Under the pieces are notes generated by a model that saw only the letters and a program-made list of their open reading frames with translations, did no database searches and was not told where the DNA came from. Positions 5,050 to 28,559 of a stretch of 28,612 bases of DNA are shown piece after piece (the stretch's first letter is position 1; each line of letters opens with the position of its first letter). The stretch is from an uncultured Thermococci archaeon. Lineage in GTDB: Archaea > Methanobacteriota_B > Thermococci > Thermococcales > Thermococcaceae. The DNA lies in the NCBI GenBank assembly GCA_964615185.1, contig CAZTOS010000025.1, positions 1-28,612 on the forward strand, read 5' to 3'. The position numbers were made by a program, and so were the translations under genes.

Positions 5050-5056
5050 CATCACC

Positions 5057-5437
5057 TCACATTAGTGCATTAACTAAGCCCAAGATTATGCTTATAAACA
5101 GGTAAACACCATATATAAAGATTCCAGCTTGAACCAAGGAAAGGATCACCTTTAATACCTTTAAATCTTCTGGAATAACTGGAGCTGGAATTCCAAGGAT
5201 TAACGAACCAAACAATAGGAAAACAACTAATCTAACTGTGCTTAAATCTATCGGAAGCTTTAACTCAGGATAAACAACTTCAACATTAATATTTTGAACA
5301 GGAATAACAACTTTTGCATTTCCAAGAGCCTTCATCGTAAAGTATGCGATTATTAAAACAATGAACAATGTCCCTAAAAGATTAATTGAAAAAGATGAAA
5401 TAAGCTTGCTAAGACTTTCCCATTTGTCTTTTTCCAT
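5057..5437 (-). CDS. Hypothetical membrane protein
   Basis: Three hydrophobic segments, tightly packed between manC and pmm as in the Pyrococcus MG operon layout. Confidence 0.75.
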   Translation of the reverse strand: MEKDKWESLSKLISSFSINLLGTLFIVLIIAYFTMKALGNAKVVIPVQNINVEVVYPELKLPIDLSTVRLVVFLLFGSLILGIPAPVIPEDLKVLKVILSLVQAGIFIYGVYLFISIILGLVNALM

Positions 5438-5438
5438 C

Positions 5439-6821
5439 TCAATCCCTTCCAAAGTCATCTTGGAATCTTACTATATCGTCCTCACCGAGATACTCACCTA
5501 TCTGGGTTTCTATAACTTCAAGCACAACTTTTCCAGGGTTCTCTAATCTATGCTTAACCCCTGCAGGAATAAAAATGCTTTCACCGGGCCTCAATAGGAT
5601 TTCTTCCTCCCCCACAATAGCCTTTGCAGTTCCCCTTACAACGACCCAATGCTCTGAACGGTGATAGTGCATCTGGAGTGATAGTCTCTTTCCTGGCAAT
5701 ACTGTAAGACGCTTTATTTTGTAACGATCTCCCTCTTCAAGGACAGTATATGAACCCCACGGCCTGTATGCTGTTCTATGTACTATTACCCTTTCATCTC
5801 CCCGCTTTTTAAGCCTTTCATAAATGTACTTGACTTTCTGACTTTCCCCTCTTGATGCCACTAAAAGGGCATCCCCGGTGTCAATTATGAGCAAGTTTTC
5901 AACGCCAACAGTGGCTGTTAACCTCTCGGTTATGATAAGATTGTTCTTTGAGTCCACCTGAAGATAATCCGCTTTCATTCCTTTAATTTTGACTGCATTT
6001 CCATTTCCATCCTTTTTAAGCGCTTCATAAATTGCGTCAAAGCTTCCCAGGTCATTCCAATATACGTTCAATGGCACAACTGCAGCTTTGTCAGTCTTCT
6101 CCATGATCCCGTAATCAACTGAGATATCTGGAACTAATTCATAAGCTTCCTCGATGCTTTTGGCTTCTTCAAATGCATTGTAGATTTCTGGAGTTAGTCT
6201 CTTGACTTCTTCAATGAAGAGTTCTGTGTCAAACATGAACATTCCACTGTTCCAATAGTAACCTTCCTCAACATATTTTTTTGCAGTCTCTAAGTCCGGT
6301 TTTTCTTTGAATTCAGCGACTTTATAACCGCCTTCCAACTTTTCTCCAGGCTTTATATATCCATAACCAGTATGAGGCCTTGTAGGTTTGATTCCAAATG
6401 TTACAAAGTAGTTCTCAGCAAGTTTTTCTGCTGTCTTAAAAGCTTTGATGTATTTTTCATTTACATCAATCAGGTGATCCGATGGTAGAACAGCAACTTT
6501 TGACTTCCCAAAATTCTCATGAATTATTTTCAGTCCCCAGTAAATCGCTGGAAGGGTGTTCTTTCCCACTGGTTCAAGAAGGACGTTCTCTTTTGGAATT
6601 TCAATACCCATATCCCTAAGCTCATCAAAAACTCTAAAGTGGTACTCCTTATTGGTTACTATGAAGATTTCCCTTGGTTTTGAGAAGAGCAGAGCTCTTT
6701 CTACAGTCTTCTGGAACAGTGAAGTGTCATCAAATATTCTTATGAACTGCTTTGGCATCAATTCTCTGCTTAAAGGCCATAGACGAGTTCCTTTTCCTCC
6801 AGCTAATATCAGCGTCTTCAT
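5439..6821 (-). CDS. manC: Bifunctional mannose-1-phosphate guanylyltransferase / mannose-6-phosphate isomerase (type II)
   Basis: LAGGKGTRLWPLSR, EPVGKNT, FKEKP, WNSGMF, plus C-terminal cupin RPWG...LSLQMHYHRSEHW. Confidence 0.95.
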   Translation of the reverse strand: MKTLILAGGKGTRLWPLSRELMPKQFIRIFDDTSLFQKTVERALLFSKPREIFIVTNKEYHFRVFDELRDMGIEIPKENVLLEPVGKNTLPAIYWGLKIIHENFGKSKVAVLPSDHLIDVNEKYIKAFKTAEKLAENYFVTFGIKPTRPHTGYGYIKPGEKLEGGYKVAEFKEKPDLETAKKYVEEGYYWNSGMFMFDTELFIEEVKRLTPEIYNAFEEAKSIEEAYELVPDISVDYGIMEKTDKAAVVPLNVYWNDLGSFDAIYEALKKDGNGNAVKIKGMKADYLQVDSKNNLIITERLTATVGVENLLIIDTGDALLVASRGESQKVKYIYERLKKRGDERVIVHRTAYRPWGSYTVLEEGDRYKIKRLTVLPGKRLSLQMHYHRSEHWVVVRGTAKAIVGEEEILLRPGESIFIPAGVKHRLENPGKVVLEVIETQIGEYLGEDDIVRFQDDFGRD

Positions 6822-7555
6822 TTTATCACCTCCAGCACTTCTTCTATTGAATTTATATTCACAGCATTTGGATGCTTTAGATTTCCTATTATGAACGCTT
6901 TTCCAACAACTTTAAATAGAGGAAAATCATTCAGCCCATCCCCAACGGCATATGTCTCAATATCTCCAAAGAACTTAGAATATAGGAGGAGCAAGATACG
7001 TGCAGCTTTTCCTTTGTTTGTGTTTCCATGAACATTATAAAATCTGCTTCCTTTTGAAATCTTAAGTCCCTTTGATTTCACTGCTTCGATGAACCCTTCA
7101 TCTTTCCAGCGAAAGATTGTTTCCGAATATTCCCTCATCATTGCAAGCTCTGCTAACTGTCTTGGAAGCCCCGTAAACTCCATGACCTCCTCAATGCTTG
7201 AGTTCCCATAATATTTCAGGCCAAACTTTTTACTAAGTTCATCAAGGATGTTTTTAATGAGTTCATACCTTTCACCAAGCTCTATAACAAAGTAACCCCC
7301 CACCTCTTTTGTAAAATTGAAACTAAATGGGAAATATTTCTTCGGAATATATATTGCACTTCCGGTTTCCACTATGAACGGGTCTTCAACATTTAAGGCT
7401 CTCCTGTAATACTCTTGCTCTGCCCTTGTTTTTGATGAATTAAAGACTATTCTAAACCCCCTTCTTTTTAGCTCATCAACTATAGCTCTGGCGGGTTCTG
7501 GAGAGTAATCCTCTCCAATCAATGTCTTGTCAAGGTCAAGGAATATCACCCTCAT
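6818..7555 (-). CDS. mpgP: Mannosyl-3-phosphoglycerate phosphatase (HAD IIB)
   Basis: DLDKTL motif I, NSSKTRAEQ, REYSET, GSRFY, GDGLND. Upstream of manC/pmm. Confidence 0.9.
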   Translation of the reverse strand: MRVIFLDLDKTLIGEDYSPEPARAIVDELKRRGFRIVFNSSKTRAEQEYYRRALNVEDPFIVETGSAIYIPKKYFPFSFNFTKEVGGYFVIELGERYELIKNILDELSKKFGLKYYGNSSIEEVMEFTGLPRQLAELAMMREYSETIFRWKDEGFIEAVKSKGLKISKGSRFYNVHGNTNKGKAARILLLLYSKFFGDIETYAVGDGLNDFPLFKVVGKAFIIGNLKHPNAVNINSIEEVLEVIK

Positions 7556-7767: not shown

Positions 7768-8517
7768 CTAAATATAAACCACCATGCCGTCATAGGCAAC
7801 CATAACTCTGTCCCCATAGTTCTCATAAACATACTCAACAAGCTTTGTAAAGGGCAAGTTGTGGTGAGCAATATGAGTTAAATATACCTTTTCAGCAACT
7901 TTCAGTCCAATTTCTGCGGCTTCATCAACATTATTATGAGTCGGATTGTCGACACCGGGAGGGTACGTCGCATCAACAATAGCTATCTTGGGCTTTTTTC
8001 TTTTTAAAAATTCGAAGGTTTTCTCAGGTAAGCCCTTTGTATCGTATAGCACTGCAATTTTCTTCCGCTTGCTCTGCAGGAAATATCCAAGGGTTTCTGG
8101 AAAGTGGTTTAGTTTCAGTGCAGTCACCTTTAGAGGAGGAACCTTTATTACATCCCCAGCTTTTATGAATGAAATCTCCAAGTTTCTTGGTTCATTGAGT
8201 ATCGTAGCATCCGCACCTTCTCTGGGAGCATAGAGAGGCAATTTCTTTGCTATCCATCTGAGCCTGTAAAGACCATAGGTGTGATCATTATGCCAGTGGG
8301 TCAGAAGAACCGCTTTAATAGAAACCCCCGGCAAATGCTCACTTACATCCGTCCCCACATCAATTAAGATTATACCACCGCGCTTTGGCAGTATCGCAAG
8401 AGTTGGAGGTTTTCTCTGAGCAAAGCTAAATTTTCTCGCTTCTTGACAGGTTGGACAGTTGCACGATGCATTTGGTATCCCCTCTGAAGCTGCAGTCCCA
8501 ATGAAGTATAGTATCAA
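7768..8517 (-). CDS. PhnP-like metallo-beta-lactamase-fold phosphodiesterase
   Basis: GTAASEGIP, CNCPTC Zn site, THWHNDH (HxHxDH), YDTKG, THIAHH. TTG start at 8517 after GGAAGGT. Own BRE/TATA candidate at ~8565-8580. Confidence 0.85.
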   Translation of the reverse strand: MILYFIGTAASEGIPNASCNCPTCQEARKFSFAQRKPPTLAILPKRGGIILIDVGTDVSEHLPGVSIKAVLLTHWHNDHTYGLYRLRWIAKKLPLYAPREGADATILNEPRNLEISFIKAGDVIKVPPLKVTALKLNHFPETLGYFLQSKRKKIAVLYDTKGLPEKTFEFLKRKKPKIAIVDATYPPGVDNPTHNNVDEAAEIGLKVAEKVYLTHIAHHNLPFTKLVEYVYENYGDRVMVAYDGMVVYI

Positions 8518-8599
8518 CTTACCTTCCCCCAAGCTGTTTTTGTCTTATGGTACTTCTGCTTTGCTATAAAAAGGCTTTTGTTCAGTTACACTGTCATTT

Positions 8600-9679
8600 T
8601 TATGGATATACAACAACTTTTAATGCTTCTTTTTTCCTCATTAGCTCTATTCCCTTGTGAATGTCATCCAAAGAGACTCTGTGGGTTATTATATTTTTAA
8701 GGTCGTCAGTTTCTTTTTTCTTTAGAATTTCTATTGTCTGGTCAAAACTTCTTGCTGCAGCATATGATCCGAATATCTGTAACTCTTTCTGGTTCATCAA
8801 TGTAAAGCTAACATGATCGGCAAATGCATGTATATTCTGCTGACCGAATAAGGACACCCTTCCTCCTGGTCTAACAGCTTTAACTGCCAACTTCACGACT
8901 TCTGGAACTCCTGCGGCGTCTATAGCAACATCTACCCCATAGGATGTAAGCTCAGAAACAACCTCAAGAAGATCCTCTGAGGTCGGATCTACAACCCTTG
9001 TTGCTCCGAGCTTTTTGGCAATTTCTCTCCTAAGAGGGCTTATTTCAGATACTATGATTTCATTAGCCCCTGATAGCTGAGCAAGCTTTATATAGAAGGT
9101 CCCTATTGGACCTGCACCAAAGATTAAGATGCTTTCACCAGGCTTTAGATTGACTTTTTCCCAGTTGTGCACTGCAGTAGTTAGCGGCTCAAAAAGAACC
9201 GCCTTTTCGATATCCATATTTTTGGGCAAAACGTAGAGCTGCTTGGTTGGGACAACTGCATACTCTGCAAAACCCCCGTTTCCATATATTCCCAACGTTG
9301 TCATTTCTTGACACATATTTGGATATCCATTCCTACAGAACCAGCATTTTCCGCACTTTATGTTAGGATCCACAGCTACCATGTCCCCAACACTGACATT
9401 GTCAACGTCTTTTCCAACCTCTACAACTTCCCCAATGAACTCGTGCCCCAAAATCGCTCCTGGAGTTGCAGTATGCCCCGGAGGTATGCTAAGTATATGC
9501 AGATCAGTACCACAAATTCCAGCCGCCAGAACTTTCAATAGAACCAGGTCTTCCTTTCTAATTTTCATCTTTTGTTCAGGTTTGTACTTCTTTGGGATTA
9601 CCAAATCTTTGCTGAGATCTGGTTTTGGGACATCCTCAACAACCAGCTTTCCTTCCCCTTTAAACACTGCAGCCTTCAT
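8600..9679 (-). CDS. Zn-dependent medium-chain (polyol/sugar-acid) dehydrogenase
   Basis: GICGTD, GHE, CGKCWFC...C structural Zn, GAGPIG NAD site. Confidence 0.9.
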   Translation of the reverse strand: MKAAVFKGEGKLVVEDVPKPDLSKDLVIPKKYKPEQKMKIRKEDLVLLKVLAAGICGTDLHILSIPPGHTATPGAILGHEFIGEVVEVGKDVDNVSVGDMVAVDPNIKCGKCWFCRNGYPNMCQEMTTLGIYGNGGFAEYAVVPTKQLYVLPKNMDIEKAVLFEPLTTAVHNWEKVNLKPGESILIFGAGPIGTFYIKLAQLSGANEIIVSEISPLRREIAKKLGATRVVDPTSEDLLEVVSELTSYGVDVAIDAAGVPEVVKLAVKAVRPGGRVSLFGQQNIHAFADHVSFTLMNQKELQIFGSYAAARSFDQTIEILKKKETDDLKNIITHRVSLDDIHKGIELMRKKEALKVVVYP

Positions 9680-9689
9680 ACTTTCACCC

Positions 9690-10583
9690 CTATAAAACTC
9701 CTATCAACTTTAATTCATTTTTTAAATTTTTCAACTCTGTTTCATCCAAAAAAACCAAAGGACTTCTAAGTTTTCCCATATCAATACCTCTGAGTTTTAA
9801 GGCAGCTTTAATCCCGGACAGATAAGGGTATTTTTTCAAAATTTGTCTTATCTTAAGAATTTTATCCTGAATCTCTTTGGCCTTTTTCAGATTTCCTTTC
9901 TTAAATTCCCTATATAGTTCAACAACCATTTCAGGAAAGACATTGGCTATTGCTGAAACTGCTCCATCTCCCCCCAATACCAAGTGGGTATAAATTAAAG
10001 CATCACTTCCCCCCAGGAATACAAAATCTTCTCTTTCTTCTTTAATCGTAGTGATGGCATTGTAAAACCACGTGACGTCTTTGGAACTATCTTTAATGCC
10101 AACGATGTTTTTTATTTTAGAGAGAGCAACCAGTGTGTCAATGCTCATCTTGTTTCCTGTTCTACCCGGGATGTAATATATCAAAATAGGTAAATCAACT
10201 TCTTCACTTAATTTGGTATAATGTTTCAGCAGTCCATCTTTGGACAGGGGATAGTAGTATGGGATCACTACATGGATTGCATCAACCCCAATTTTTTCTG
10301 CATACTTGCTGAGCTTTATTGTTTCCCTTGTGCTTATGCTCCCAGTTCCAGCTATTATTGGAATTCGTCCATTAACTACTTCTGCAGACAATTTCATAAT
10401 CTGCATTTTTTCTTCCATATCCAAAGATGGCCCTTCTCCATTAGTTCCCAACAAAAAAAACCCATTTACTCTCTTTTTAATTAGAAATTCCAAGAACGAT
10501 ACGAGTTTTTCCTCATCTATACTCTCATCTTCTTTGAAAGGCGTGACTACTGGAGGAAACACACCCTCAAACACCCTTCTCAC
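9690..10583 (-). CDS. DapA/NAL-family class I aldolase, probable 2-keto-3-deoxy-(6-phospho)aldonate aldolase
   Basis: VTPF, GTNGE, PYYY, YYIPGRT, Schiff-base KDSS. GTGA overlap with a KdgK-like kinase. Confidence 0.85.
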   Translation of the reverse strand: MRRVFEGVFPPVVTPFKEDESIDEEKLVSFLEFLIKKRVNGFFLLGTNGEGPSLDMEEKMQIMKLSAEVVNGRIPIIAGTGSISTRETIKLSKYAEKIGVDAIHVVIPYYYPLSKDGLLKHYTKLSEEVDLPILIYYIPGRTGNKMSIDTLVALSKIKNIVGIKDSSKDVTWFYNAITTIKEEREDFVFLGGSDALIYTHLVLGGDGAVSAIANVFPEMVVELYREFKKGNLKKAKEIQDKILKIRQILKKYPYLSGIKAALKLRGIDMGKLRSPLVFLDETELKNLKNELKLIGVL

Positions 10584-11542
10584 CTTGAAACCTCAATATA
10601 GCATCGAGTTTTTACCAGTGACTCAATTTCTTCTCTTGTAACATAAATTGGATCACCTGGAATAGTATGGGCAAATGCTGCCATTGCCAAACCCCATTTT
10701 AATGCCTTGTCTATCTCACCACTTTTCAGATAAATGTAAGCAAACCCAGCATCAAAAGCATCCCCTGCTCCAATTCGATCTACAATTTCAATTTCATATG
10801 GTAGACCCCTGTATATCTTTCCATCCTTTAACGCTACAGCCCCTTTTGATCCCAAAGTTAAGACAAGGACTTCAGGTGAATATCGTTCATAAAGAAGTTC
10901 CAGAGTCTCCTCTGGGGATTTATGAATGCTAAAGACCGTTTTGGCGTCGTCTTTAGTTAAAATCAATATATCCACATCCCCAAGAATATTGTCTAAAACC
11001 TTGAATGCCTCTTTTGGGGTCCAAAGCTTTGCTCGATAATTCACATCAAATGATACCACGGTTCCAAATTCTTGAGCCCTTTTTATTCCAATTTCAACAG
11101 CTTTCTTGCAATTTTCGCTTAATGCAACGGTAATGCCCGTAGTGTGGAACAAATCATAATCACCGAGGATATCCCAATTCACTTCTTCTGGATCGATATT
11201 AGCAAATGCAGAGTTTTCTCTATCGTATATGACCTGAGTTGTCCTTGGCTTTCTTCCAAATTCTATAAAATACAGACCCATCCTGTATCTATTTGTCCAT
11301 ATCACATTGGATACATCCACTCCATGCTCCCTAATCTTGTTTACCACGAATCTTCCAAGCGGGTTATCTGGCAGTTTGCTTATCCATGCAGACCTTCCTC
11401 CCAATCTTGCAAATGCTATTGCAAAGTTAGATTCGGCGCCTCCAATTCCAATGGCAAGTTCTCTGGCCTGTTCAAGTCTTTCAAAGCCCTTGGTCGATAA
11501 CCTCAACATAGTCTCTCCAAATGAGATTGCTGAGGGAATCAT
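10580..11542 (-). CDS. kdgK: PfkB-family sugar kinase, 2-keto-3-deoxygluconate kinase-like
   Basis: FGETMLRL, GGAESN, YDRENSA, FDVNYR, DRIGAGDAF. RBS GAGGTGA before ATG 11542. Confidence 0.85.
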   Translation of the reverse strand: MIPSAISFGETMLRLSTKGFERLEQARELAIGIGGAESNFAIAFARLGGRSAWISKLPDNPLGRFVVNKIREHGVDVSNVIWTNRYRMGLYFIEFGRKPRTTQVIYDRENSAFANIDPEEVNWDILGDYDLFHTTGITVALSENCKKAVEIGIKRAQEFGTVVSFDVNYRAKLWTPKEAFKVLDNILGDVDILILTKDDAKTVFSIHKSPEETLELLYERYSPEVLVLTLGSKGAVALKDGKIYRGLPYEIEIVDRIGAGDAFDAGFAYIYLKSGEIDKALKWGLAMAAFAHTIPGDPIYVTREEIESLVKTRCYIEVSR

Positions 11543-11552
11543 GTTTCTCACC

Positions 11553-12731
11553 TCAAGCAGTGACACCAATTCTTTCAATTGAAAATTCAAAATGTCCCGA
11601 TTTTTCAGACTTCGTTAATTCGCCATTTGCCACCTTTATGATTTTTTCAATTATTTTCTCCTTTCCAAGCTCCAGCATTTCTTCAAGAGAGACATCATCT
11701 CTACGGAGCATCTCCTTCAAAATAAAGCTTAAATCAACATCTATAGCATCATGAAGACGTTTGGCAGTGTCTGCATTCCCGGTGATTTTTATTACAGGTG
11801 AAACTGGGGAGCCAAGATAAGTTCCAAGACCAGTTGTGAAAAGAACAATGTGCGCTCCACCACTGACGAGCCCTGTTACTGCCTGCACATCGTAGCCAGG
11901 ACCATCCATAAAGTATAATCCCCTTCCAGGCGGTCTTTCCCCATAGTCCACACAACCCTCCAATGGGACACTTCCAGTTTTTTTAATTGCACCCAGCGAC
12001 TTTTCTTCTATTGTTGTCAAGCCACCTCTTATATTACCCATGGAAGGCTGAGAGCCAATCCAGTCAACACCCATCTTATTAACATCTTCCACAGCTTTCC
12101 TGATTCTTCTCAGAAAATCCTCTGCAATATTCTTATCCTTAGCCCTCTTTGCTATTAGATGCTCAGCTCCTACAACCTCAAGTCTCTCGGTAAAAATCAC
12201 TGTAGCACCCTGCTCAACGAGAAAATCAACAACTTTCCCCACAGCGGGGTTTGAGATGAGCCCTGATGTAAAGTCAGATGCTCCACATTTCAGCCCTATT
12301 ACAAGCTCATCAATGGATGTTGTATCTTTCCTTGGCTTTAATGACTCTTTTGCACTGTTGATTAGCTCCACCCCTCTTTCGATTACTTTTTGGATACCTT
12401 CCTCCTGTATCAAGAGTGCTTCAGCATTTCTCCCCCTATTAGAGATTCTGTCTGCTATCTCGTAACTATCTACCCCCTCACATCCCAGCCCCACAACCAA
12501 AGTCCATGCAACGTTTGGATGTGCACCAATCCCCACTAATGTCCTCACAAATTGCTTTTTGTCCCTTCCAAACATTCCACACGCTCCATTCTCTTGTACC
12601 ACTGGAATTGCATCAGTTCTCCTGGCTATTTCTAATGCAGCGTAATTGGCACAAGCTACTGAGGACATGACAATGATGTGGTTTCTTATTCCAAAATCTC
12701 CATTTTCCCTTCTCCACCCAGTTATCTCCAT
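11553..12731 (-). CDS. UxaA/GarD-family sugar-acid dehydratase, catalytic subunit
   Basis: GIRNH, SVACA, HPN, VGLGCE, LKCGASD, GNIRGGLTTIEEKSLGAI, FTTGLG. Confidence 0.9.
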   Translation of the reverse strand: MEITGWRRENGDFGIRNHIIVMSSVACANYAALEIARRTDAIPVVQENGACGMFGRDKKQFVRTLVGIGAHPNVAWTLVVGLGCEGVDSYEIADRISNRGRNAEALLIQEEGIQKVIERGVELINSAKESLKPRKDTTSIDELVIGLKCGASDFTSGLISNPAVGKVVDFLVEQGATVIFTERLEVVGAEHLIAKRAKDKNIAEDFLRRIRKAVEDVNKMGVDWIGSQPSMGNIRGGLTTIEEKSLGAIKKTGSVPLEGCVDYGERPPGRGLYFMDGPGYDVQAVTGLVSGGAHIVLFTTGLGTYLGSPVSPVIKITGNADTAKRLHDAIDVDLSFILKEMLRRDDVSLEEMLELGKEKIIEKIIKVANGELTKSEKSGHFEFSIERIGVTA

Positions 12732-12735
12732 CCTG

Positions 12736-12999
12736 CTATCCTCCCTGATAGCGACTTTTGACATTATGGACATGGACGTATTCGCCAACTTTTATGTCCT
12801 CTGTAGCTATTCCAATAATTTCCCCGTACTTTATTACCGGCTCTCCAGCTCTTATTTCTCTGAGTGCAAACTTGTGTCCCTGAGGTATATCTTCCAGCAA
12901 AACTATCTCCCCTGCAGTGGTTCTCACCTTCTCACCTTTCTTTAAGGATACAATTGCAGTGGCAACATTATCCCTCTCGTCCATGACGATAGCTTTCAT
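12736..12999 (-). CDS. UxaA-family dehydratase SAF-domain small subunit
   Basis: DNVATA, IPQGHKFA, VIKYGEIIG, VHVHNV. Confidence 0.9.
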   Translation of the reverse strand: MKAIVMDERDNVATAIVSLKKGEKVRTTAGEIVLLEDIPQGHKFALREIRAGEPVIKYGEIIGIATEDIKVGEYVHVHNVKSRYQGG

Positions 13000-14018
13000 G
13001 GTTTTAACACCACTCTCGGGCTGTACCCACGTTCTGCTTCTTTAATAGCCTCCTCCCAGTCCTCCAGTTTATATACCTTCGAAATCAAAGGCTTAGTTTT
13101 TACTTTTCCTTCTTTCATTAGGTAAAGTATCTTCTCCCAAGATGTCCATGATGAGGAAAGATGGAATATCACTTCTATTGCCTTGAACACTATTTCGTTC
13201 CAAGGCACAGTTACGCTCCCTTTAGGAATTCCAAATGCTATGACCTTCCCCAAGTTTTGGGTAACCCTTAACGCCTGTAAAATCGCAGGAGGAGCACCAC
13301 TTGCTTCAAAAGCAATGTTTGCTCCGTTTCCATTGGTTAATCTTTTTACTTCTGAAACCGGGTCTTCCTCAGCATAGAGTGTGTAATCCGCTCCTAACTT
13401 CTCTGCTAAATCAAGTCTATATTCATCTCTCTCCGTTTTGGTTCCAACAATAGCAACTTCAGCCCCGGTAGCTTTTGCAACTTGCACTGCAAACAGTCCC
13501 ACTGCCCCAGGTCCAAAGATAACAACAAACTGACCCGGTTGAAGATTAGCACGCTCATTTAACGCATAGACAACGTCAGCCCCAATTTCCGTAATTGAAG
13601 CCTCTTCAAAACTGAGATTCTTTGGAATTCTATGCAGACCTTCTATTGGCACCAAAATCTTTTCGGTGAATGCTCCATTTGCCTTTATACCTATCACTTT
13701 TTTCTCCGGACAGTGTTGGGGATATCCAGACCTGCAAAGGTAACATTTTCCACAAGTTGAAAATGTTGTTTGTGATGTTACCCTATCTCCCTTCTTCCAT
13801 TCTCCTTTGTTCTCAGCCACCACTCCAGAGAATTCGTGTCCCAAAATAACGGGAGCTTCATATGGATGCCCTCTATCATGAATTATCAGAAGATCCGAGG
13901 CACATATGCCAGCAGCTTTTACATCGACTATTATGTATCCCTCTTTACTCTGGGGTTCTGGAACATCCTCTAACCTCACATTCCAAGGCCCTTTAGCATA
14001 TTTCACTAAAGCCTTCAC
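12996..14018 (-). CDS. Zn-dependent medium-chain dehydrogenase (sorbitol/idonate dehydrogenase-like)
   Basis: GICASD, GHEFSG, CGKCYLC...C, GPGAVG. GTG start, ATGA overlap with the SAF gene. Confidence 0.9.
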   Translation of the reverse strand: MKALVKYAKGPWNVRLEDVPEPQSKEGYIIVDVKAAGICASDLLIIHDRGHPYEAPVILGHEFSGVVAENKGEWKKGDRVTSQTTFSTCGKCYLCRSGYPQHCPEKKVIGIKANGAFTEKILVPIEGLHRIPKNLSFEEASITEIGADVVYALNERANLQPGQFVVIFGPGAVGLFAVQVAKATGAEVAIVGTKTERDEYRLDLAEKLGADYTLYAEEDPVSEVKRLTNGNGANIAFEASGAPPAILQALRVTQNLGKVIAFGIPKGSVTVPWNEIVFKAIEVIFHLSSSWTSWEKILYLMKEGKVKTKPLISKVYKLEDWEEAIKEAERGYSPRVVLKP

Positions 14019-14070
14019 ACCAATTCCCCCTTACAAATTAATAAAGACAACAAAGAAAGAAAAATTTAAA

Positions 14071-15165
14071 TCAGCCCTTTCCACCCAAACGTTTCACAAG
14101 CCCATATACTGGCTTCCACCCTTCATCTCCTGGAAGCTTCAGATATGGCTCCATCTCTTCAGTTGTTCTGAAGGTAACTTCCTCCACAGGTGGAACAGTT
14201 CCCGGTGGAAATCTCTCCAAAATCTGATCAATGAGCAATTCCAAGTACTTCAAGATGAAGGCTATTGCTCTTTTTGCTTTTTTAGCATCAGCAAGCGTCG
14301 CTTTCCCTACAACACCTTCTGGGGTATTGACTATCTCGATTGGTATGTGTCCCTCGGCACTGCTCCATCTCATAGGTCTCAGCAAACCATCCACCGCTTT
14401 ATCAAAATGCCCCTCTGGGAGATAGCTCCTTGGATTGGTGTCGACAGCGTAATCCATGTTGACCATCTCTGGTGGAAATAAGAGGAGTGCTAAAGAAGTT
14501 TCCGCTTCATCGGCATGCACAAAGTCTGTCTCAAATTCTCCTCCCCTTTCTTTGGTTCTGAAGAATTTCCCTGCTGCCCTATGCCAATCAAGAGCAATAT
14601 AAATTCCCGGCAACTGATATTTCTTCATAAACTCTTGAATAGCGGATTCAAGAACCCAAAAATGTCCATGATTATTTATGAGGATCTGCTTTCTGTATCC
14701 CATATTCCAAAGCCCCAGCATCACGTCCATTATGTATTCTTTGAGGTGATCCTCTTCTATTATAACAGTCCCTGGCATTCCGTAATGGTGCCATGGATGA
14801 GAACCATAGGTGATTGGCCATGTTATTGCAACTGGCTTCCCTTTCTTTGCCATGTGTTTCCTAACAGCCTCACTTATCTGAGTTACATATAGGGTATCGG
14901 TACCAGGTGGTAAATGGTTTCCGTGAAATTCTGTAGAACCTATTGGGATTATGACTACATCACATTGTCTAACTTCCTCAAAAATTTTGTATCCTGGAGT
15001 GGTTTGGATGTACATACCGGGTTCAGCCAATCCTGGAGGTGAAGGAATATCGAACTCCTCCAGAATCCTATCTATCTCTTCATCGCTTGCCGTCCATATT
15101 TCTCGTTCTAATTTCCCAACAGGAGTATCTTCAAATACCAAATCTTTAGGAATTTCTCGACTCAT
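14071..15165 (-). CDS. iolN: 3-dehydro-scyllo-inosose hydrolase-like (creatininase fold)
   Basis: GSTEFHG, HPWHHYGMPGT, HADEAETS, LPEGHFDKA, PEGVVGKATLA match the recalled Thermotoga maritima IolN. Adjacent to iolM. Confidence 0.85.
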   Translation of the reverse strand: MSREIPKDLVFEDTPVGKLEREIWTASDEEIDRILEEFDIPSPPGLAEPGMYIQTTPGYKIFEEVRQCDVVIIPIGSTEFHGNHLPPGTDTLYVTQISEAVRKHMAKKGKPVAITWPITYGSHPWHHYGMPGTVIIEEDHLKEYIMDVMLGLWNMGYRKQILINNHGHFWVLESAIQEFMKKYQLPGIYIALDWHRAAGKFFRTKERGGEFETDFVHADEAETSLALLLFPPEMVNMDYAVDTNPRSYLPEGHFDKAVDGLLRPMRWSSAEGHIPIEIVNTPEGVVGKATLADAKKAKRAIAFILKYLELLIDQILERFPPGTVPPVEEVTFRTTEEMEPYLKLPGDEGWKPVYGLVKRLGGKG

Positions 15166-15192
15166 TTTCAACCCTCACAAGATTCATAAATA

Positions 15193-16389
15193 TCATGGCT
15201 TTATCATAACCTTTCCAATTTCGCTCTTCTTTTCGCTTGCGAGCTTCATTGCATCCAGGATTTCCTCTAATTTGAAGCGGTGAGTTACTATCTTCGTCAT
15301 GTCAATTTTTCCTGATGCCATTAGATTTATGACACTTGGGAATATGCCGTGACCAGAGTGCCCTTGAGCTCCAAATATCTGAGCCCTCCGCACTTGAAGA
15401 ACTTCAAACTGAACTGGAACATGGGTTACCGCTCTTCCAATTGCAACAACTTTTGCATTCACTTTCTCACCATTCCAAATTGCCTCTTCCATTGCAGGCC
15501 ATGTCTTCGGGAAAGCTCCAGCAGCTTCCACATACATATCAGCACCTTCTCCATGTGTGACTTCCAGTATTTTTCCGGAGACGGAATCTACCTGAGTGGG
15601 ATCAATAACTACATCTGCCCCCATTTCTTTTGCCATCTTCTGCCTAACCTTTGCAATTTCAACGGCAATGACTTTGGCAGCTCCTGCGGCTTTGGCAAGT
15701 GCAATTCCAGCCAGTCCTATAGGGCCAGCACCAAATATGACAACATAAGCACCTGGTCTAAAACCTCCTCCCCTTTCAAATATTCCATTGTAAGCAACAG
15801 AAGTTGGTTCAACAAGAGCACCCGCTTCATAACCCTTTTCTTCCCCATACTTCTCTACTAAATCCGTGATTTCCCAGACCACCCTTGCAGGAACTGCTAT
15901 GTATTCAGCAAAAGCTCCATCCCTGCTGAAGCCTATTTCTTCAAGGTTTATGCAGTGGTTAGGATATCCCTCTCTACAGGGTCTGCAGTATCCACACCAA
16001 ACCATTTCCTCGGCAGTCACTGGGGTTCCGACTTCAAATTTTTGTCCCCACTGGTTGTATGCCTTTTCTCCAACTTTGACTATTTCTCCTGAAAATTCAT
16101 GTCCAAGTACACATGGAAATGCTGTTAAACCTGGGTACAGTATGTATCCGTCGGAAGTTGATTCATACATGTGGATATCAGACCCACAAATTCCACATGC
16201 TTTGACTTTTATTAGAACCTCATCCTCCCTGATCTTCGGAATCGGTCTGCGTTCTAATCTTAATTCTGGATATCTCCAAACAAGTCCTCCCAAATATGTC
16301 AATTTTCCTTCAATGTCTTTTGGAGTTGGTTTGTACTCCGGTTTTGGGTCCCATTTTGCATATAAAACAGCTGCCAGCATGTCTTCCAT
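15193..16389 (-). CDS. iolM: scyllo-inosose 3-dehydrogenase-like Zn-dehydrogenase
   Basis: Distinctive AKWDPKP...KDIEGKLT, GYILYPGLT, AEEMVWCG, EPTSVAYN, QVRRAQI.GAQGHSGHG match the recalled T. maritima IolM. RBS GGGTGA before ATG 16389. Confidence 0.88.
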   Translation of the reverse strand: MEDMLAAVLYAKWDPKPEYKPTPKDIEGKLTYLGGLVWRYPELRLERRPIPKIREDEVLIKVKACGICGSDIHMYESTSDGYILYPGLTAFPCVLGHEFSGEIVKVGEKAYNQWGQKFEVGTPVTAEEMVWCGYCRPCREGYPNHCINLEEIGFSRDGAFAEYIAVPARVVWEITDLVEKYGEEKGYEAGALVEPTSVAYNGIFERGGGFRPGAYVVIFGAGPIGLAGIALAKAAGAAKVIAVEIAKVRQKMAKEMGADVVIDPTQVDSVSGKILEVTHGEGADMYVEAAGAFPKTWPAMEEAIWNGEKVNAKVVAIGRAVTHVPVQFEVLQVRRAQIFGAQGHSGHGIFPSVINLMASGKIDMTKIVTHRFKLEEILDAMKLASEKKSEIGKVMIKP

Positions 16390-16420: not shown

Positions 16421-16440
16421 ATTATATAAGCATTATTTTT
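16421..16440 (-). promoter_or_regulatory. Putative BRE/TATA promoter of the iolM operon
   Basis: Minus strand AAAAATAATGCTTATATAAT, ~35 nt upstream of the iolM ATG. Confidence 0.55.
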
Positions 16441-16632: not shown

Positions 16633-16878
16633 TCATTTGATCTTTTTAGATAGTATGATTGTTGTTACCATTTTGACACCTTCAATTGTGGAGATTGAAG
16701 AGAGGAGCTTAGACAATTCTTCCCGTGTTGGGGTGTGAACATGTATGCACATATCATATTCTCCAAGAACCTCATAAACATGAAGAACCCCTTTCATTCG
16801 TGCTATTTCCATCTCCACAGGAACCTGTCTGCTTTTGGGTTCTGTTTTTACGAAAAGGAATGCCATTATGCCATCCAT
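16633..16878 (-). CDS. Stand-alone Lrp/AsnC ligand-binding (RAM) domain protein
   Basis: AFLFVK...VYEVLGEYD...IEGVKMVTTIIL, no HTH. Confidence 0.85.
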   Translation of the reverse strand: MDGIMAFLFVKTEPKSRQVPVEMEIARMKGVLHVYEVLGEYDMCIHVHTPTREELSKLLSSISTIEGVKMVTTIILSKKIK

Positions 16879-16879
16879 T

Positions 16880-17344
16880 CTACACATCCTCCAAAAGCTG
16901 CCTGCTAATTCCGATTTTATGATCCTTAATTATGAGGAGTGTGTGAGTTGCAACTATCCCCTCTATTTTGGCCAGTGTTATGGCTAAGAACTCTCTCAGC
17001 TCGTTCATGTCCTTGACTACAATTTTTGCTATGAAATCATATGTTCCACCGATCTCATAAAGTTCTACAACCTCTTTTCTTTTCTTCAGCTCTCTAATTG
17101 CATCTGCTCTCTTTTTTGCCTCCACGCTTATTTCAACAAACGCCACTATGCTGTATCCTAATTTTGTAAAATTTATATTGGCTGAATATCCTTCTATTAC
17201 CCCCTTCTCCTCCAGCTTTTTTATTCTGTTTTTAACCCCCATAACACTCAGACCAACTTTCTTAGCAATTTCTGTAAGCGAAATTCTCGCATTATCCTTT
17301 AGCAAGATTAGGATTTTTTTGTCTATATCGTCAATCACATCCAT
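16880..17344 (-). CDS. Lrp/AsnC-family transcriptional regulator
   Basis: IDDIDKKILILLKDNARISLTEIAKKVGLS...RIKKLEEKGVI HTH plus RAM domain. Confidence 0.93.
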   Translation of the reverse strand: MDVIDDIDKKILILLKDNARISLTEIAKKVGLSVMGVKNRIKKLEEKGVIEGYSANINFTKLGYSIVAFVEISVEAKKRADAIRELKKRKEVVELYEIGGTYDFIAKIVVKDMNELREFLAITLAKIEGIVATHTLLIIKDHKIGISRQLLEDV

Positions 17345-17426: not shown

Positions 17427-17654
17427 TTAAGAAACTCTTGTTAGTAAACCCGGTCTGGAGAGCATTCCAACACTTCTCAACAAGGTAAGGGCAAGATCAA
17501 CACCCGAATCTCTTGGAATGGTTTCATACTCCTTAAGACCTTTTGTGGAAACTACAATTCCTCCGCTATTGTCCGATATGTATACAAAGTTCTGCATTGG
17601 GTATCTCACCTCTGGAATTTCAGAATACTTATCCAAGTCTTGGGTACCTCTATT
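17427..17654 (-). pseudogene. Internal fragment of a GH38 alpha-mannosidase C-terminal region
   Basis: YPMQNFVYISD...KGLKEYE...LALTLLRSVGMLSR resembles the GH38/MngB C-terminal domain. ~75 codons of a normally much larger protein. Confidence 0.7.
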
Positions 17655-17843: not shown

Positions 17844-18293
17844 ATGAACGAGTTAACTGAAGAAGAAAAAGAATTTATAGAACGTGTAAAACCCATGCTC
17901 AAAAAGTTTTTAGAGTTATGTGAGAAAGAAGGAATCGAGCCAGGAGCAGGTTCCTATATTCTGTCTGAAAAAGGCAATATATATCATGGAGTTCCTTTTA
18001 AGGCAGCAAGATCTATTCATGGTGAAGAGAACGCAATAGGAACAATGGTGACAGAAGAAGGCATAAATTCAAAATTCAAAATAATTTTAATTATTGGTGG
18101 ACCTGAAGAAATAATTCTCCCTTGTGGGATATGCAGAGAAGCCATTAGTCGCTATGGTACTGAAGATGTCACAATTTTATGTGCTGACCTATCTCTATCA
18201 AAAATAAAGAGCTGGGAAGTTTATCCAAGTGGTCTTTATGACGCAATCTTTATAAATATGGAGTACAATAAACCGATTTACTTTTTCTCTTGA
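17844..18293 (+). CDS. Cytidine-deaminase-like protein with chimeric GH1-derived C-terminus
   Basis: HGEENAI (HxE) and PCGICRE Zn motifs. Residues WEVYPSGLYDAIFINMEYNKPIY near the C-terminus are identical to the GH1 at 22154-23674. Confidence 0.8.
   Translation: MNELTEEEKEFIERVKPMLKKFLELCEKEGIEPGAGSYILSEKGNIYHGVPFKAARSIHGEENAIGTMVTEEGINSKFKIILIIGGPEEIILPCGICREAISRYGTEDVTILCADLSLSKIKSWEVYPSGLYDAIFINMEYNKPIYFFS
18211..18281 (+). repeat. 71-bp direct repeat, copy 1 (GH1 gene segment)
   Basis: 66/71 identical to 23304-23374. All 5 differences are synonymous third positions. Confidence 0.95.
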
Positions 18294-18385: not shown

Positions 18386-18670
18386 ATGCCACGGAAAAGA
18401 AAACTGGGCTAAGTACTCCCAGACAAAAAAAGTGTTCTTAGCCCTCAAAAACTCGCAAAAACAATTTACCAGAACCCTACACAATCCACACCAGCCTATA
18501 ACCCAAAAGCCATAACAGTCTTGCTTGGAAGGATATGGTTCGGTTTCAGTTGGATCATCCGCGGAAGTTTCGGCGTGTTTACAGGTTTAGGGTGCTGGTT
18601 GAGTCGTTTTTCAGTGTGTTTAAGTCTAAGTTCCTGGATTTTGTTCGGTGCAGGTTGCCTGCTTCACCGA
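18386..18670 (+). mobile_element. Internally deleted IS4/IS5-superfamily DDE transposase remnant
   Basis: N-terminal MPRKR/NWAKYSQ and PAYNPKA pieces. Perfect Y-2-R-3-E-6-K motif YRFRVLVESFFSVFK at 18580-18624. Catalytic D residues missing. Confidence 0.7.
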
Positions 18671-18755
18671 AATTTTTGGAAAAATCATCCTGTTAAACCT
18701 TATTCAGGTGATCAAAATGCAGAAAACTTAATACTCCAACCTCGTTCCTTCTTTG

Positions 18756-18802
18756 GATACTGTTAGGGTAAATTTTGGCATCACCTCTTGAAGCCAATTC
18801 TC
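18756..18802 (-). mobile_element. Isolated right end of a Thermococcales IS6-family element
   Basis: IR-like GATACTGTTAGGGTAA. Minus strand reads ENWLQEVMPK, matching the IS6 transposase C-terminus and the same end of the element at 21793. Confidence 0.65.
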
Positions 18803-18911: not shown

Positions 18912-19805
18912 CTAGAAAACCATAACTTTCCCCGAGTGAAGTTTCTCAAAGTCTTTTCCAAACTCATTTGCAAACATGCTTTCTGCCTTGAGCCCCGTGC
19001 AGTGCCCGGTATAAACCTTCCTAACTCCCATCTTCTTAAGAGTATTTACTGTATTTTGAATTCTTTCATCATCTGCGCCTATCAGATGAAATCCTCCTAT
19101 AACAGCGTATACCCGGTCAATTCCGCTTATCCTCATGGCTTTCCTCGTCATGCTAACTATTCCAGGATGGGAACATCCTCCAATAACGATTAAGCCTTTT
19201 TTGGTATTTATTGCAAGTCCTATCTCATCCTCGACCTCATCCGGAACTAATCTTCCCTTTTCAAGCTTGTAGAGACCGATAGTAACTTTTTTCTCGAATT
19301 CAACTTTCTCTTCCTTTGTAATTTCTCCAAGAGTGAAAACCCCTGGCATTAAATGTATAGGATCTCTACTCAAGATCCATATACCTCCAAGTTTTTCAAT
19401 TTCCTCCTTTGAGCCACCCCTCAGAGGTGGGATTCCGGCATACATAAACTCTGGATCCGTGGCAAAACTCACTTTAAAGATGTTTGGATGTGCGAATACT
19501 GGTATTTCTTTATTTATCTCCTTCATAATACTCAGCAAGCCCCCTGTGTGGTCAAAGTGGTTATGAGAAAGGACAATCATGTCTATGGTTTTTGGATTAA
19601 TGTTTAAAAGCTTCATATTGAAGAGGATTGGTTCGGCGTAGGATGCAGTATCGAAGAGTATTCTTCGCTTGGCATCGTTGCTCTCAACTTCAATTAAAAA
19701 GGAAACCCCGTGTTGTGCCCAAAATGGACTGTTATATCCGGCATAATCCTCAGCCAATGTATAAACTTTTAACTTGTCCACTTCTCCAAGGTTCATATTT
19801 ATCAT
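18912..19805 (-). CDS. Metallo-beta-lactamase-fold hydrolase (COG1237-like)
   Basis: AQHGVS, LFDTA, SHNHFDHTGG, GCSHPG, GGFHL, GHCTG. Confidence 0.88.
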   Translation of the reverse strand: MINMNLGEVDKLKVYTLAEDYAGYNSPFWAQHGVSFLIEVESNDAKRRILFDTASYAEPILFNMKLLNINPKTIDMIVLSHNHFDHTGGLLSIMKEINKEIPVFAHPNIFKVSFATDPEFMYAGIPPLRGGSKEEIEKLGGIWILSRDPIHLMPGVFTLGEITKEEKVEFEKKVTIGLYKLEKGRLVPDEVEDEIGLAINTKKGLIVIGGCSHPGIVSMTRKAMRISGIDRVYAVIGGFHLIGADDERIQNTVNTLKKMGVRKVYTGHCTGLKAESMFANEFGKDFEKLHSGKVMVF

Positions 19806-19818
19806 CTCCACCTAATAT

Positions 19819-21156
19819 TCACTCTAAGTACCTTCCTCTGGGCCATTCTCTTATTAATGGCATTATCTCTTCTTTGTTTTGAGATACTCTTATGTAGTAT
19901 ATTAAGAGACCTATTGCCAACCATACTCCAAAGTATGCTAAAGCCCTAGCACCCTGCAGGATAAAGAAGTAGACGGAGATTGCCAAACCAATTGCGGGGA
20001 ATATTAGCTTCCAGCCTTCTAGTTTAAAGAACTCAGTTTTCTCATACATATCTGGGTACTTCTTTGGAAGGAAGAATATGCAAAGATGGAACATTATCCA
20101 CTCAAATAAAAATGCTGCAACTACAATTTCTGCCACCAATTCGATTGTTCCAGTCACTATGAGGAAGATAGCTATTGCATCGCCAATTATTAGGGCAACG
20201 TGAGGTATTCCATATTTGTTTATTTTGTGCAGACCTGGGACTATTTTATCTCTGGAAAGTGAAAATGCTACTCTTGCGGCGGTCGCTTGCTCTCCATTAT
20301 GCGAAGTGAGAATTGCTGCCCATGCTACTAGGATTATGAATATAACACCAAAAGAACCCATGAACTTAGATGCTGCACTAGCATAAGGGGCTTCTGCACT
20401 TGCAAATTCATACCAAGGGAGCACCCCCACGCACACAAAGCTTGAGAGCACATATAACACTATGGGTATTAATGTGCCTAATAACACGGCTTTAGGCAAT
20501 ACTGAAGGAGTTTTAACTTCTTCTCCAATATCCGTGGCAATGGTAATCCCAGCATATGCAAATATGAGTAGAGATGCTGCTTTTAACACTCCTCTCCATC
20601 CAAGCGGAGATCCCAGCTTTAAATAGGAAATATGGATGTGAGGGAGCCCCCATAAGCTGAATGCAAGGATTCCAAATACTAAAAACAGAAACAGCGCATC
20701 TTGGACTTTTGCTACTACTTTCACTCCTAAGTAATTGATCACGAAAAACACTATGGTTACCAACACAGCCCCTGCAGTTATGGACATTCTCCAGCTAACT
20801 CCGGGGAGTGCGTTTAGGTAATTTACAAATGCTTGGGCTGTTATAGCAACGGGGCCAATTATTGCAAGCCACATTGCCCATCCAGTTAAGAAACCCAAAA
20901 CGGGATGAAGAATCCTTGATGGGTAGACGTAGCTTCCCCCCTCTACTGGATAAAAGGTTGATAGGGAGGCTGTTGTAATTCCAATTAGGATTACCGGGAC
21001 TGCTCCGATCAAATAAGAGACCCATACTAACGCTCCAGCATATTTGGCTGCGATTCCCGTTATAATAAAAAGTCCTGCTCCTATTACAATCCCTGCAACT
21101 ATAGAAGTAGCATCTAAAACTCCTAATTCTTTTCTAAGTTCCTTTTTTTCAACCAT
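19819..21156 (-). CDS. APC-superfamily amino acid/polyamine permease
   Basis: ~12 TM, VIGAGLF, EGGSYVY, FAYAG, GEEVKTP, ARVAFSLSRD. RBS GAGGTG before ATG 21156. Confidence 0.9.
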   Translation of the reverse strand: MVEKKELRKELGVLDATSIVAGIVIGAGLFIITGIAAKYAGALVWVSYLIGAVPVILIGITTASLSTFYPVEGGSYVYPSRILHPVLGFLTGWAMWLAIIGPVAITAQAFVNYLNALPGVSWRMSITAGAVLVTIVFFVINYLGVKVVAKVQDALFLFLVFGILAFSLWGLPHIHISYLKLGSPLGWRGVLKAASLLIFAYAGITIATDIGEEVKTPSVLPKAVLLGTLIPIVLYVLSSFVCVGVLPWYEFASAEAPYASAASKFMGSFGVIFIILVAWAAILTSHNGEQATAARVAFSLSRDKIVPGLHKINKYGIPHVALIIGDAIAIFLIVTGTIELVAEIVVAAFLFEWIMFHLCIFFLPKKYPDMYEKTEFFKLEGWKLIFPAIGLAISVYFFILQGARALAYFGVWLAIGLLIYYIRVSQNKEEIMPLIREWPRGRYLE

Positions 21157-21179
21157 CCTTGCCACCTCAAATTAAGAGG

Positions 21180-22115: not shown

Positions 22116-22153
22116 CGTGATGATGCACCTATAGAGGCTTGAGGTGTCTTCAA

Positions 22154-23674: not shown

Positions 23675-23809
23675 GCTCGTGTATACCTTCTTTTTATAAA
23701 CTTCTTTACAACTATCCTCGTATGAGAAATTTAGACATTTATATGTCAAAAAAGCTTATTAAGTGGTAGAAAACCCAGCATATGGGATAATCCTTTGGGA
23801 GGACACCCT

Positions 23810-26916: not shown

Positions 26917-26924
26917 AATTTTCA

Positions 26925-26962
26925 CCAAAAGTTTTATAAAAATTCAGCTTATATAACTTTCG
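26925..26962. promoter_or_regulatory. Overlapping divergent BRE/TATA promoters
   Basis: Plus strand CAAAAG-TTTTATAAA (26926-26940). Minus strand GAAAG-TTATATAAG (about 26948-26962). Confidence 0.55.
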
Positions 26963-26985
26963 ATTTCATATATGGGGGGAGTACC

Positions 26986-28218: not shown

Positions 28219-28559
28219 TCACCCTTGATACAGATGACACGCCACATAGTGTCCAGGGCTAACTTCCTTTAATTCTGGTTCAATCTTACTGCAAATCTCT
28301 GTTGAATATGGACACCTGGTATGAAACTTGCATCCACTTGGTGGATTTAATGGACTGGGAATATCCAGACTTTTGAGCTTCAATGGCTTCCTTTTTCTTG
28401 AGAGTTCTGGATCTGCCACAGGAACCGAGGATATTAGAGCCTTGGTATATGGATGCAATGGATTCTGAATAACTTCCTCAGCAGCAGCTACTTCTGCGAT
28501 TTTTCCGAGGTACATAACGGCTATTGAACCCCCTCCTTTCGCTGAAAAATACCGAGCTG
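28219..28559 (-). CDS. 3' part of an Opp/Dpp-family ABC ATPase (OppF/DppF-like), 5'-truncated
   Basis: AARYF...[32 protein letters not shown]...C...VACH. Cut by the terminal repeat just after the expected HDL switch motif. Confidence 0.9.

Follow-up and report, generated by a model that had tools for sequence, protein, structure and literature searches.

How might an archaeon that carries the ring-opening enzymes of inositol catabolism make and use their metabolites if the enzymes that flank them in the known pathway cannot be found? This question is raised by a stretch of 28,612 nucleotides (the window, meaning the whole stretch that was analysed), which is contig C25 of a Thermococcales assembly (G000) of 2.26 Mb with a completeness of 95.6%. 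Eight open reading frames (ORFs) run from position 16389 to 8600 as a single consecutive series, all on the minus strand. The original prediction had described them as a tight operon coupling IolM and IolN to a sugar-acid branch, and both the order and the tightness were confirmed, with intergenic distances of 27, 52, –4, 4, 10, –4 and 10 nt when starts supported by a ribosome binding site were used. Read along the minus strand, the genes are:

15193..16389, minus strand: iolM, scyllo-inosose 3-dehydrogenase, a zinc-dependent medium-chain dehydrogenase/reductase (Zn-MDR; NF041097, PDB 3ip1); ATG at 16389 preceded by GGGTGAG
14071..15165, minus strand: iolN, 3-dehydro-scyllo-inosose hydrolase of the creatininase family (NF041098)
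12996..14018, minus strand: Zn-dehydrogenase B (Zn-DH B), proposed 5-keto-L-gluconate 5-reductase forming D-idonate (MDR, own clade, linkage to SAF-UxaA)
12736..12999, minus strand: SAF-domain small subunit of a split UxaA/GarD dehydratase (PF08666, 46.6 bits)
11553..12731, minus strand: large subunit of the UxaA/GarD-family dehydratase, proposed D-idonate dehydratase (PF20629, 283.6 bits; PF04295, 107.5 bits)
10580..11542, minus strand: PfkB kinase, proposed 2-keto-3-deoxy-galactonate/gluconate (KDGal/KDG) kinase (best family NF041332; PDB matches)
9690..10583, minus strand: DHDPS/NAL-family aldolase, proposed to act on the 6-phosphates KDPGal/KDPG (PF00701; context)
8600..9679, minus strand: Zn-dehydrogenase A (Zn-DH A), proposed inositol dehydrogenase in place of IolG (operon context of its relatives)

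A familiar ring-opening core with a proposed new entry and exit

The IolG-IolM-IolN-IolO pathway of Thermotoga maritima was reportedly described by Rodionova et al. in 2013. It is encoded by TM0411–TM0416 and proceeds via scyllo-inosose, diketo-inositol and 5-keto-L-gluconate, as outlined in the available text of PMC5931981 and PMC12632266. The ring-opening core of the window is the one already known from this pathway, and it is the proposed entry and exit that differ. In an NCBIfam profile search, IolM scored 553.7 bits against NF041097 (cut-off 450) and IolN 346.9 bits against NF041098 (cut-off 245), so that both predicted identities lie above curated cut-offs; IolM also matched PDB 3ip1, a zinc dehydrogenase of T. 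maritima, with 487 bits.

We propose that the operon is self-contained and would convert inositol to pyruvate and D-glyceraldehyde-3-phosphate (D-GAP) without IolG, IolO or UxaE. Judging from its context, Zn-DH A would use NAD+ to oxidise myo-inositol (or scyllo-inositol) to scyllo-inosose, which IolM would convert to the diketone and IolN would open to 5-keto-L-gluconate, the families of the latter two being established and their activities predicted. Zn-DH B would subsequently reduce C5 of 5-keto-L-gluconate to yield D-idonate, and the SAF-UxaA heteromer, for which the superfamily is established and the substrate predicted, would dehydrate this to 2-keto-3-deoxy-D-galactonate. After phosphorylation of C6 by the PfkB kinase, the DapA-type aldolase would release pyruvate and D-GAP into the lower part of the modified Embden-Meyerhof pathway. 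All of these reactions are deduced from family and context. Catabolism of inositol or inosose through an IolO-independent sugar-acid branch is in our judgement highly probable, while the full scheme, with the roles of both Zn-DHs included, is somewhat favoured.

Reduction of 5-keto-L-gluconate can yield only D-idonate or L-gluconate, and both fit the C2/C3 requirement of the UxaA family. D-idonate is preferred because C5 sets the chirality of the released GAP, and D-GAP arises from D-idonate only.

Conservation of the operon

Among the 99 Thermococcales genomes surveyed, IolN was above cut-off in six (G000, G088, G090, G091, G096 and G097), and the C-terminal domain of UxaA (GD_AH_C) was above cut-off in exactly the same six. 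The five relatives of G000 carry the same eight genes in identical order, with 91–92% identity to the window for IolM and approximately 68–89% for the lower enzymes, and the maintenance of this order in five further genomes argues that the arrangement is not due to chance. Orthologue protein clusters were named from Thermococcus barophilus MP (TERMP_00017, TERMP_00019 and ADT83000), with further names from a second T. barophilus entry and from Thermococcus sp. SY098 and MV5. The carrier genomes are kin, and their counts are not independent events. Databases label such genes "L-threonine 3-dehydrogenase", "sorbitol dehydrogenase" or "altronate hydrolase".

Beyond these six genomes, the lower module was found on three metagenome contigs (L169, L170 and, partially, L171). 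The layout of L170 is Zn-DH B, SAF, UxaA, kinase, aldolase, iolN; L169 holds a similar gene set next to an archaeal RFC gene, but its kinase and aldolase are just 34% and 32% identical. When 29 iolM/iolN loci were compared, an IolO-like gene was present in 10 (four of them references), Zn-DH B plus UxaA in nine (several of which are near-identical), neither in 10 and both in none. The sugar-acid module thus appears to occur where IolO does not. Two alignment-based scans of genomes each listed 80 loci, mostly distant ones, which do not amount to a census; among the 80 UxaA loci listed, none had iolM or iolN.

Searches for IolO, UxaE and IolG covered five carriers (G000, G088, G090, G091 and G097), two of which are near-complete, with T. 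maritima as positive control for IolO and UxaE. In each of the five, IolO gave at best 29 bits (cut-off 300), UxaE gave no match above cut-off, and IolG (TIGR04380) gave at best 190.5 bits (cut-off 355), with none in the operon. The earlier statement that IolO and UxaE are missing therefore holds genome-wide in all five, including the two near-complete genomes, and iolG, for which a genome search had also been suggested, was likewise not found above cut-off.

Zn-DH A as the probable entry enzyme

The original prediction left the entry step open, and we now propose Zn-DH A (8600–9679) as a substitute for IolG. Zn-DH A is an MDR zinc dehydrogenase in which neither an NCBIfam family above cut-off nor the Gfo/Idh/MocA fold was found. 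Its relatives at 50–66% identity include Patescibacteria proteins, and two of its closest bacterial relatives (58–59%; loci L300 and L301) head canonical iolD/iolB/iolA operons without iolG. The gene order in L301 is Zn-DH, a TIM barrel (weakly IolE-like), iolD-like (633 bits, cut-off 715), iolB-like (104 bits, cut-off 205), iolA/MMSDH (560 bits, cut-off 448) and PfkB, and L300 is similar apart from an insertion and an acetate kinase gene. Because the canonical pathway does not pass through 5-keto-L-gluconate, the simplest reading is that the Zn-DH A clade oxidises the inositol ring. By operon context, Zn-DH A most likely replaces IolG as the first enzyme.

In a 117-sequence FastTree phylogeny, Zn-DH A grouped with iol-linked Zn-DHs with a clade support of 0.999. 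Members of this clade lie near iolE/iolB-like genes (L088), near iolM-iolN-iolO (L090) or near iolM-iolN-like genes (L017 and L018), and no IolG above cut-off was found in the genomes of these four; L089, L092 and L095 are members without a recognised iol neighbour. AlphaFold models of the two Zn-DHs (pLDDT 90 and 88), searched with Foldseek, revealed a generic MDR fold with threonine dehydrogenases as best matches and did not name the substrates. Zn-DH A has an acidic E212 closing beta-2, as in Tdh, IolM and GatD, while Zn-DH B has a GTKTERD insertion at the Rossmann end and three Lys in a loop that is modelled with low confidence; these differences, including the Lys loop, are suggestive only.

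The Patescibacteria/Saccharibacteria metagenome-assembled genomes (MAGs) behind L300 (3198–12283), L301 (8001–16271) and L088 (1265–4151) hold apparently complete canonical inositol operons with a Zn-MDR at the head instead of iolG. The L300 operon also includes PduL, and such catabolic capacity is unusual for these lineages. Of the two genomes with the L300 and L301 operons, one (G108) gave no Gfo/Idh/MocA match, and the other (G109) has two such proteins, which share 23–27% identity with IolG and have neighbours that seem to be of the polysaccharide type.

Alternatively, the substrate of Zn-DH A might be scyllo-inositol or a different isomer, or the enzyme might be an L-gluconate 5-dehydrogenase akin to LgnH, with scyllo-inosose made by a Gfo/Idh/MocA pair on contig C17; we consider this rather unlikely. 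It is favoured by locus L100, where a gene of the Zn-DH A clade adjoins a true IolG (368 bits, above 355) and from which the clade may oxidise another inositol isomer, and by loci L108 and L008, which have IolG plus another Zn-DH. Moreover, the Gfo/Idh/MocA pair, present in all five carriers searched, scores 139–190 bits on TIGR04380 and could provide IolG activity. Against this, close homologues of the first protein of the C17 pair occur in 60 of the 99 genomes and do not track the operon, which disfavours the pair as the operon's IolG; Zn-DH A is just 28% identical to LgnH; and its nearest relatives with known context are those that head canonical iol operons without iolG. The Gfo proteins below threshold comprise a UDP-GlcNAc dehydrogenase and the pair adjoining an ABC transporter. 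The C17 region itself (G000:C17:14872–25614) holds GH38, the ABC transporter and the tandem Gfo/Idh/MocA pair.

A proposed reductase and a split dehydratase after ring opening

Zn-DH B is likewise an MDR zinc dehydrogenase without an NCBIfam family above cut-off, and it formed a tight clade of its own (support 1.0) in the 117-sequence tree. It lies directly upstream of SAF-UxaA in all nine loci that carry it, and this constant proximity places it at the aldonate step, as the original prediction had supposed for the gene at 12996–14018. Its identities to characterised enzymes are 30% (YdjL), 27% (LgnH), 26% (LgoD) and 25% (IdnD).

The SAF protein (PF08666) and the large protein (PF04295 plus PF20629) together make up a split UxaA/GarD enzyme in which SAF, GD_AH_second and GD_AH_C are all present. 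The SAF subunit is 37–43% identical to the N-termini of LgnE, UxaA and GarD, and the large subunit is 35.5% identical to LgnE of Paracoccus denitrificans, the highest value among these three characterised references, and 31% to UxaA and GarD of E. coli. The dehydratase retains the four family Cys, in columns aligned with LgnE, UxaA and GarD. Four conserved Cys characterise the UxaA superfamily, in which D-idonate dehydratase and heteromeric members are known, according to the available text of PMC6336799. A split UxaA-family dehydratase, 40% identical to the window enzyme, also lies on pHV3 of Haloferax volcanii (L043:11998–14381) among Gfo, enolase-family and DapA-family genes.

The best families of the kinase are bifunctional KDG/KDGal kinases, the halophilic KDG/KDGal kinase NF041332 ranking first, and its best PDB matches are the KDG kinases 2afb, 1wye and 1v19. 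The aldolase is 35% identical to E. coli YagE. A dihydrodipicolinate synthase (DHDPS) role was disfavoured on context; DapB_N gave weak partial matches (best 36 bits). The kinase-aldolase end that had been predicted was supported in outline, except that the aldolase fails the cut-off of the archaeal KD(P)G aldolase family NF040954 (183 bits versus 390).

Several observations weigh against the proposed route. The kinase remains below the cut-offs of both NF041332 (337 versus 440) and NF040938 (194 versus 400). The aldolase passes the DapA family TIGR00674 (250.6 versus 206) and retains an Arg in YYIPGRTG, and, given that it passes this cut-off and fails that for KD(P)G aldolases, its role rests on context. 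No relative of Zn-DH B above 30% was found among the characterised enzymes compared. The dehydratase is 44% identical to the split enzyme of a Bacillus fucose-type cluster and falls in the split-subunit branch of a 73-sequence tree, outside the LgnE clade, so that orthology does not name its substrate. No transporter gene lies inside the operon, absences based on MAGs are weak evidence, and the six carriers, from two genera, may reflect a single acquisition. Finally, T. maritima shows no growth on inositol as sole carbon source, as stated in the available text of PMC3750489.

It is improbable that the lower branch runs through L-gluconate (to 2-keto-3-deoxy-L-gluconate), or, in the manner of the Luteolibacter and E. 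coli L-galactonate routes, through D-altronate with the help of a C4 epimerase that escaped recognition. The candidate acids do share the C2/C3 configuration of the UxaA superfamily (altronate, galactonate and idonate in the available text of PMC6336799), and AP_endonuc_2 TIM barrels are present in every carrier, one of them adjoining a phnP-like gene in G088 and G090. These proteins reach at most 30% identity and 41 bits to IolO-like references, which disfavours them as IolO, and the one that adjoins the operon is without an equivalent in both G091 and G097; an L-gluconate route, in turn, would yield L-GAP.

That the locus merely juxtaposes two unrelated modules, iolM/iolN and a separate dehydratase-kinase-aldolase cassette (for L-fuconate or D-arabinonate) or a SuyAB-type sulfolactate lyase, is very doubtful: split UxaA enzymes do include SuyAB and L-fuconate dehydratase (available text of PMC6336799) and the kinase-aldolase pair is found apart from iol genes in G080 and G081, yet stop and start codons overlap within the operon, UxaA accompanies IolN each time in the six of 99 genomes, the linkage persists in distant contigs with rearranged order, and the product of IolN would otherwise be a dead end. 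SuyAB, known here by description, is reported in the available text of PMC6336799 as heteromeric and without the four conserved Cys; it was disfavoured because these Cys are present here and the context does not fit.

In G080 and G081 the kinase-aldolase pair lies beside TTT/TRAP carboxylate transporters. The two loci (L307:2993–12559 in G080 and L306:4590–10762 in G081) are devoid of iol genes and hold TctABC or DctPQM, Ldh_2, 2-hydroxyacid dehydrogenase and FAH genes. Judged by gene content, this is a putative second sugar-acid pathway in Thermococcales.

Comparison with known systems

With the Thermotoga pathway, the proposed route shares the IolM and IolN families and the predicted intermediates. 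It differs in that the operon is without IolG, IolO and UxaE, with a Zn-MDR entry proposed, and in its exit by C5 reduction, split UxaA, PfkB kinase and DapA-type aldolase, all within a single operon.

The L-gluconate (Lgn) pathway of Paracoccus, summarised in the available text of PMC12632266 and PMC6336799, resembles the lower branch in its proposed chemistry (5-keto-L-gluconate to D-idonate, KDGal, KDPGal, and pyruvate plus GAP) and in the dehydratase superfamily (35.5% identity). It differs in employing the short-chain dehydrogenase (SDR) LgnI, a DgoK-type kinase and a DgoA-type aldolase, where a Zn-MDR, a PfkB kinase and a DapA-type aldolase are found here; the dehydratase here is split and outside the LgnE clade, and the branch would be fed by inositol ring opening instead of L-glucose. 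When the operon proteins were searched by BLASTP at E 0.01, none matched LgnI, LgnF (DgoK-type) or LgnG (DgoA-type) of P. denitrificans. The likeness to Lgn that had been noted earlier therefore extends to the proposed chemistry and not to the enzymes, and on sequence comparison the lower branch is best regarded as an analogue of Lgn, not as an orthologue or member.

The Lgu route of Luteolibacter LG18 and the E. coli L-galactonate route (available text of PMC12632266) share with the window a 5-keto-aldonate, a reductase, a UxaA-family dehydratase, a KDG kinase and an aldolase. The Lgu route, however, needs the IolO-like C4 epimerase LguG and runs via tagaturonate and altronate, and no such epimerase was found here. 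The Bacillus-type pathway (IolG, IolE, IolD, IolB, IolC, IolJ and IolA) is linked to the window by the Zn-DH A relatives that head such operons in Patescibacteria, whereas the operon itself is without iolE, iolD, iolB and iolA and its ring opening would be hydrolytic, following a second oxidation. The semi-phosphorylative Entner-Doudoroff end of archaea resembles the terminal module in its KDG/KDGal-type PfkB kinase and DHDPS/NAL-family aldolase, but both enzymes are here under curated cut-offs and the module is confined to a minority of genomes.

The claim that this would be a new archaeal inositol pathway needs narrowing. Thermotoga-type iolG/iolM/iolN/iolO clusters are present in MAGs of Desulfurococcales, Thermoproteales and Nitrososphaeria (L010 to L012, L015, L016 and L022; three with uxaE), and the iolM loci of those archaea and of bacteria include IolG-like (296–351 bits), IolO-like (211–312 bits) and UxaE genes. 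Since other archaea already carry such clusters, the novelty lies in the route. A literature search, of which most subscription journals were outside the coverage, revealed no description of inositol catabolism in Thermococcales, of this route or of a Zn-MDR inositol dehydrogenase, and the available text of PMC8305020, PMC9007349, PMC8397731 and PMC10547907 contains nothing on archaeal inositol catabolism. The comparative tables of Rodionova et al. 2013 could already list archaeal orthologues.

Flanking genes and a possible natural substrate

The operon is flanked in the window by the following features:

7768..8532, minus strand: PhnP-like metallo-beta-lactamase (MBL) hydrolase, candidate inositol phosphodiesterase, 67 nt downstream of the operon (PF12706; TIGR03307 161 bits, below 272)
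16421..16430, minus strand: TATA-like element TTATATAAT, located approximately 30 nt before iolM begins (consensus match only)
16633..17344, minus strand: two Lrp/AsnC-family ORFs, candidate regulators, both preceding iolM in each of the six carriers (Pfam)
22139–23674, plus strand: GH1 (Pfam)
23795–24928, 24933–26054 and 26896–28008, plus strand: three GH130 (Pfam)
26068–26928, minus strand: phosphomannose isomerase (Pfam)
28219–28560, minus strand: end of a peptide-type ABC ATPase gene (Pfam)

Promoter and terminator scans of the locus remained at chance level. Four RNA runs of one study contain the L037 operon as contigs, and because the flanking DNA is equally covered these runs give no proof of transcription.

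In all carriers the operon lies among mannoside genes, the order of which varies. GH130 as a family occurs in 55 of the 99 genomes; specific to the carriers are only the type at 24933–26054 (five of six carriers, none of the 93 other genomes) and the presence of at least three matches. Two GH130s were tested against the PDB, and their best matches were beta-1,2-mannoside phosphorylases, weak and partial. The PhnP-like paralogue (68–81%) is confined among the 99 genomes to G000, G088, G090, G091 and G097, which are also the five carriers with this GH130 type; it exists in addition to a housekeeping copy that most of the 81 genomes with a match possess. A binding protein of the G088 island has matches in four of the 99 genomes, all of them carriers; it was not found in G091, nor in G000, where the contig breaks off within the transporter. 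Independently, GDPD (L015 and L022), an MBL hydrolase (L090) or GH130 (L011) has joined other clusters with iolM/iolN.

Thermotoga makes beta-1,2-mannosylated di-myo-inositol phosphate (DIP; available text of PMC3124967). DIP is not produced by T. barophilus, in which an insertion of 17 kb separates MPGS from MPGP (available text of PMC4932500); from locus tags and the adjacency of the island to mpgP here, that insertion is probably this island. Tentatively, the island may scavenge DIP and its beta-1,2-mannosylated forms by peptide-type ABC import, demannosylation by GH130 and GH1, phosphodiester cleavage by the PhnP-like hydrolase, and a hitherto unrecognised Zn-dependent inositol dehydrogenase family (shared with Patescibacteria) that would feed the IolM-IolN-idonate route. 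In its favour are the co-distribution, the PDB matches of the GH130s and the recruitment of comparable genes by other clusters. We hold this as a possibility rather than an expectation, because hitch-hiking or one shared acquisition would also explain the co-distribution. No paper on DIP degradation was found in the literature search.

Further features of the region were observed. Mannosylglycerate synthesis genes (PMM, ManC and MpgP-like) adjoin the island at 3673–7555, and an mpgS homologue lies on contig C62. A GH38 alpha-mannosidase remnant (74% over 69 aa) is located at 17436–17642; in G097 and G091 the full gene precedes that for Lrp. A 69-nt piece of the GH1 gene (23306–23374) is duplicated at 18213–18281, at the 3′ end of a cytidine-deaminase-like ORF (17844–18293) that adjoins a short unclassified ORF (18521–18766); the duplication resembles the scar of a rearrangement. 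The genes for an MBL-fold protein and an APC-family permease (18912–21165), which separate the operon from GH1 and GH130, were not seen in the loci of the other carriers. Elsewhere in the assembly, a homologue (261 bits) of the T. kodakarensis myo-inositol 3-kinase (PDB 3w4s/4xf7; the kinase is described in the available text of PMC5931981) is divergent from a second DapA-family gene (G000:C42:2888–3739, L305). A bifunctional IPCT/DIPPS-like gene is apparently split into two ORFs on contig C54 (L297), is whole in G091 and G097, and had no match in G088 or G090.

If true, the proposed route would add a third architecture to those of inositol catabolism. Three enzymes would be newly assigned: a heteromeric D-idonate dehydratase and two Zn-MDRs, one a 5-keto-L-gluconate reductase and the other an inositol dehydrogenase displacing IolG. 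The route would also provide an Entner-Doudoroff-type end in Thermococcales, an order from which the modified Entner-Doudoroff pathway is stated to be absent in the available text of PMC4853606. The route is directly testable in T. barophilus MP, which has named orthologues and for which deletion mutants have been made (available text of PMC4932500). Should the island indeed handle DIP, the finding would bear on the recycling of the signature osmolyte of vent hyperthermophiles.

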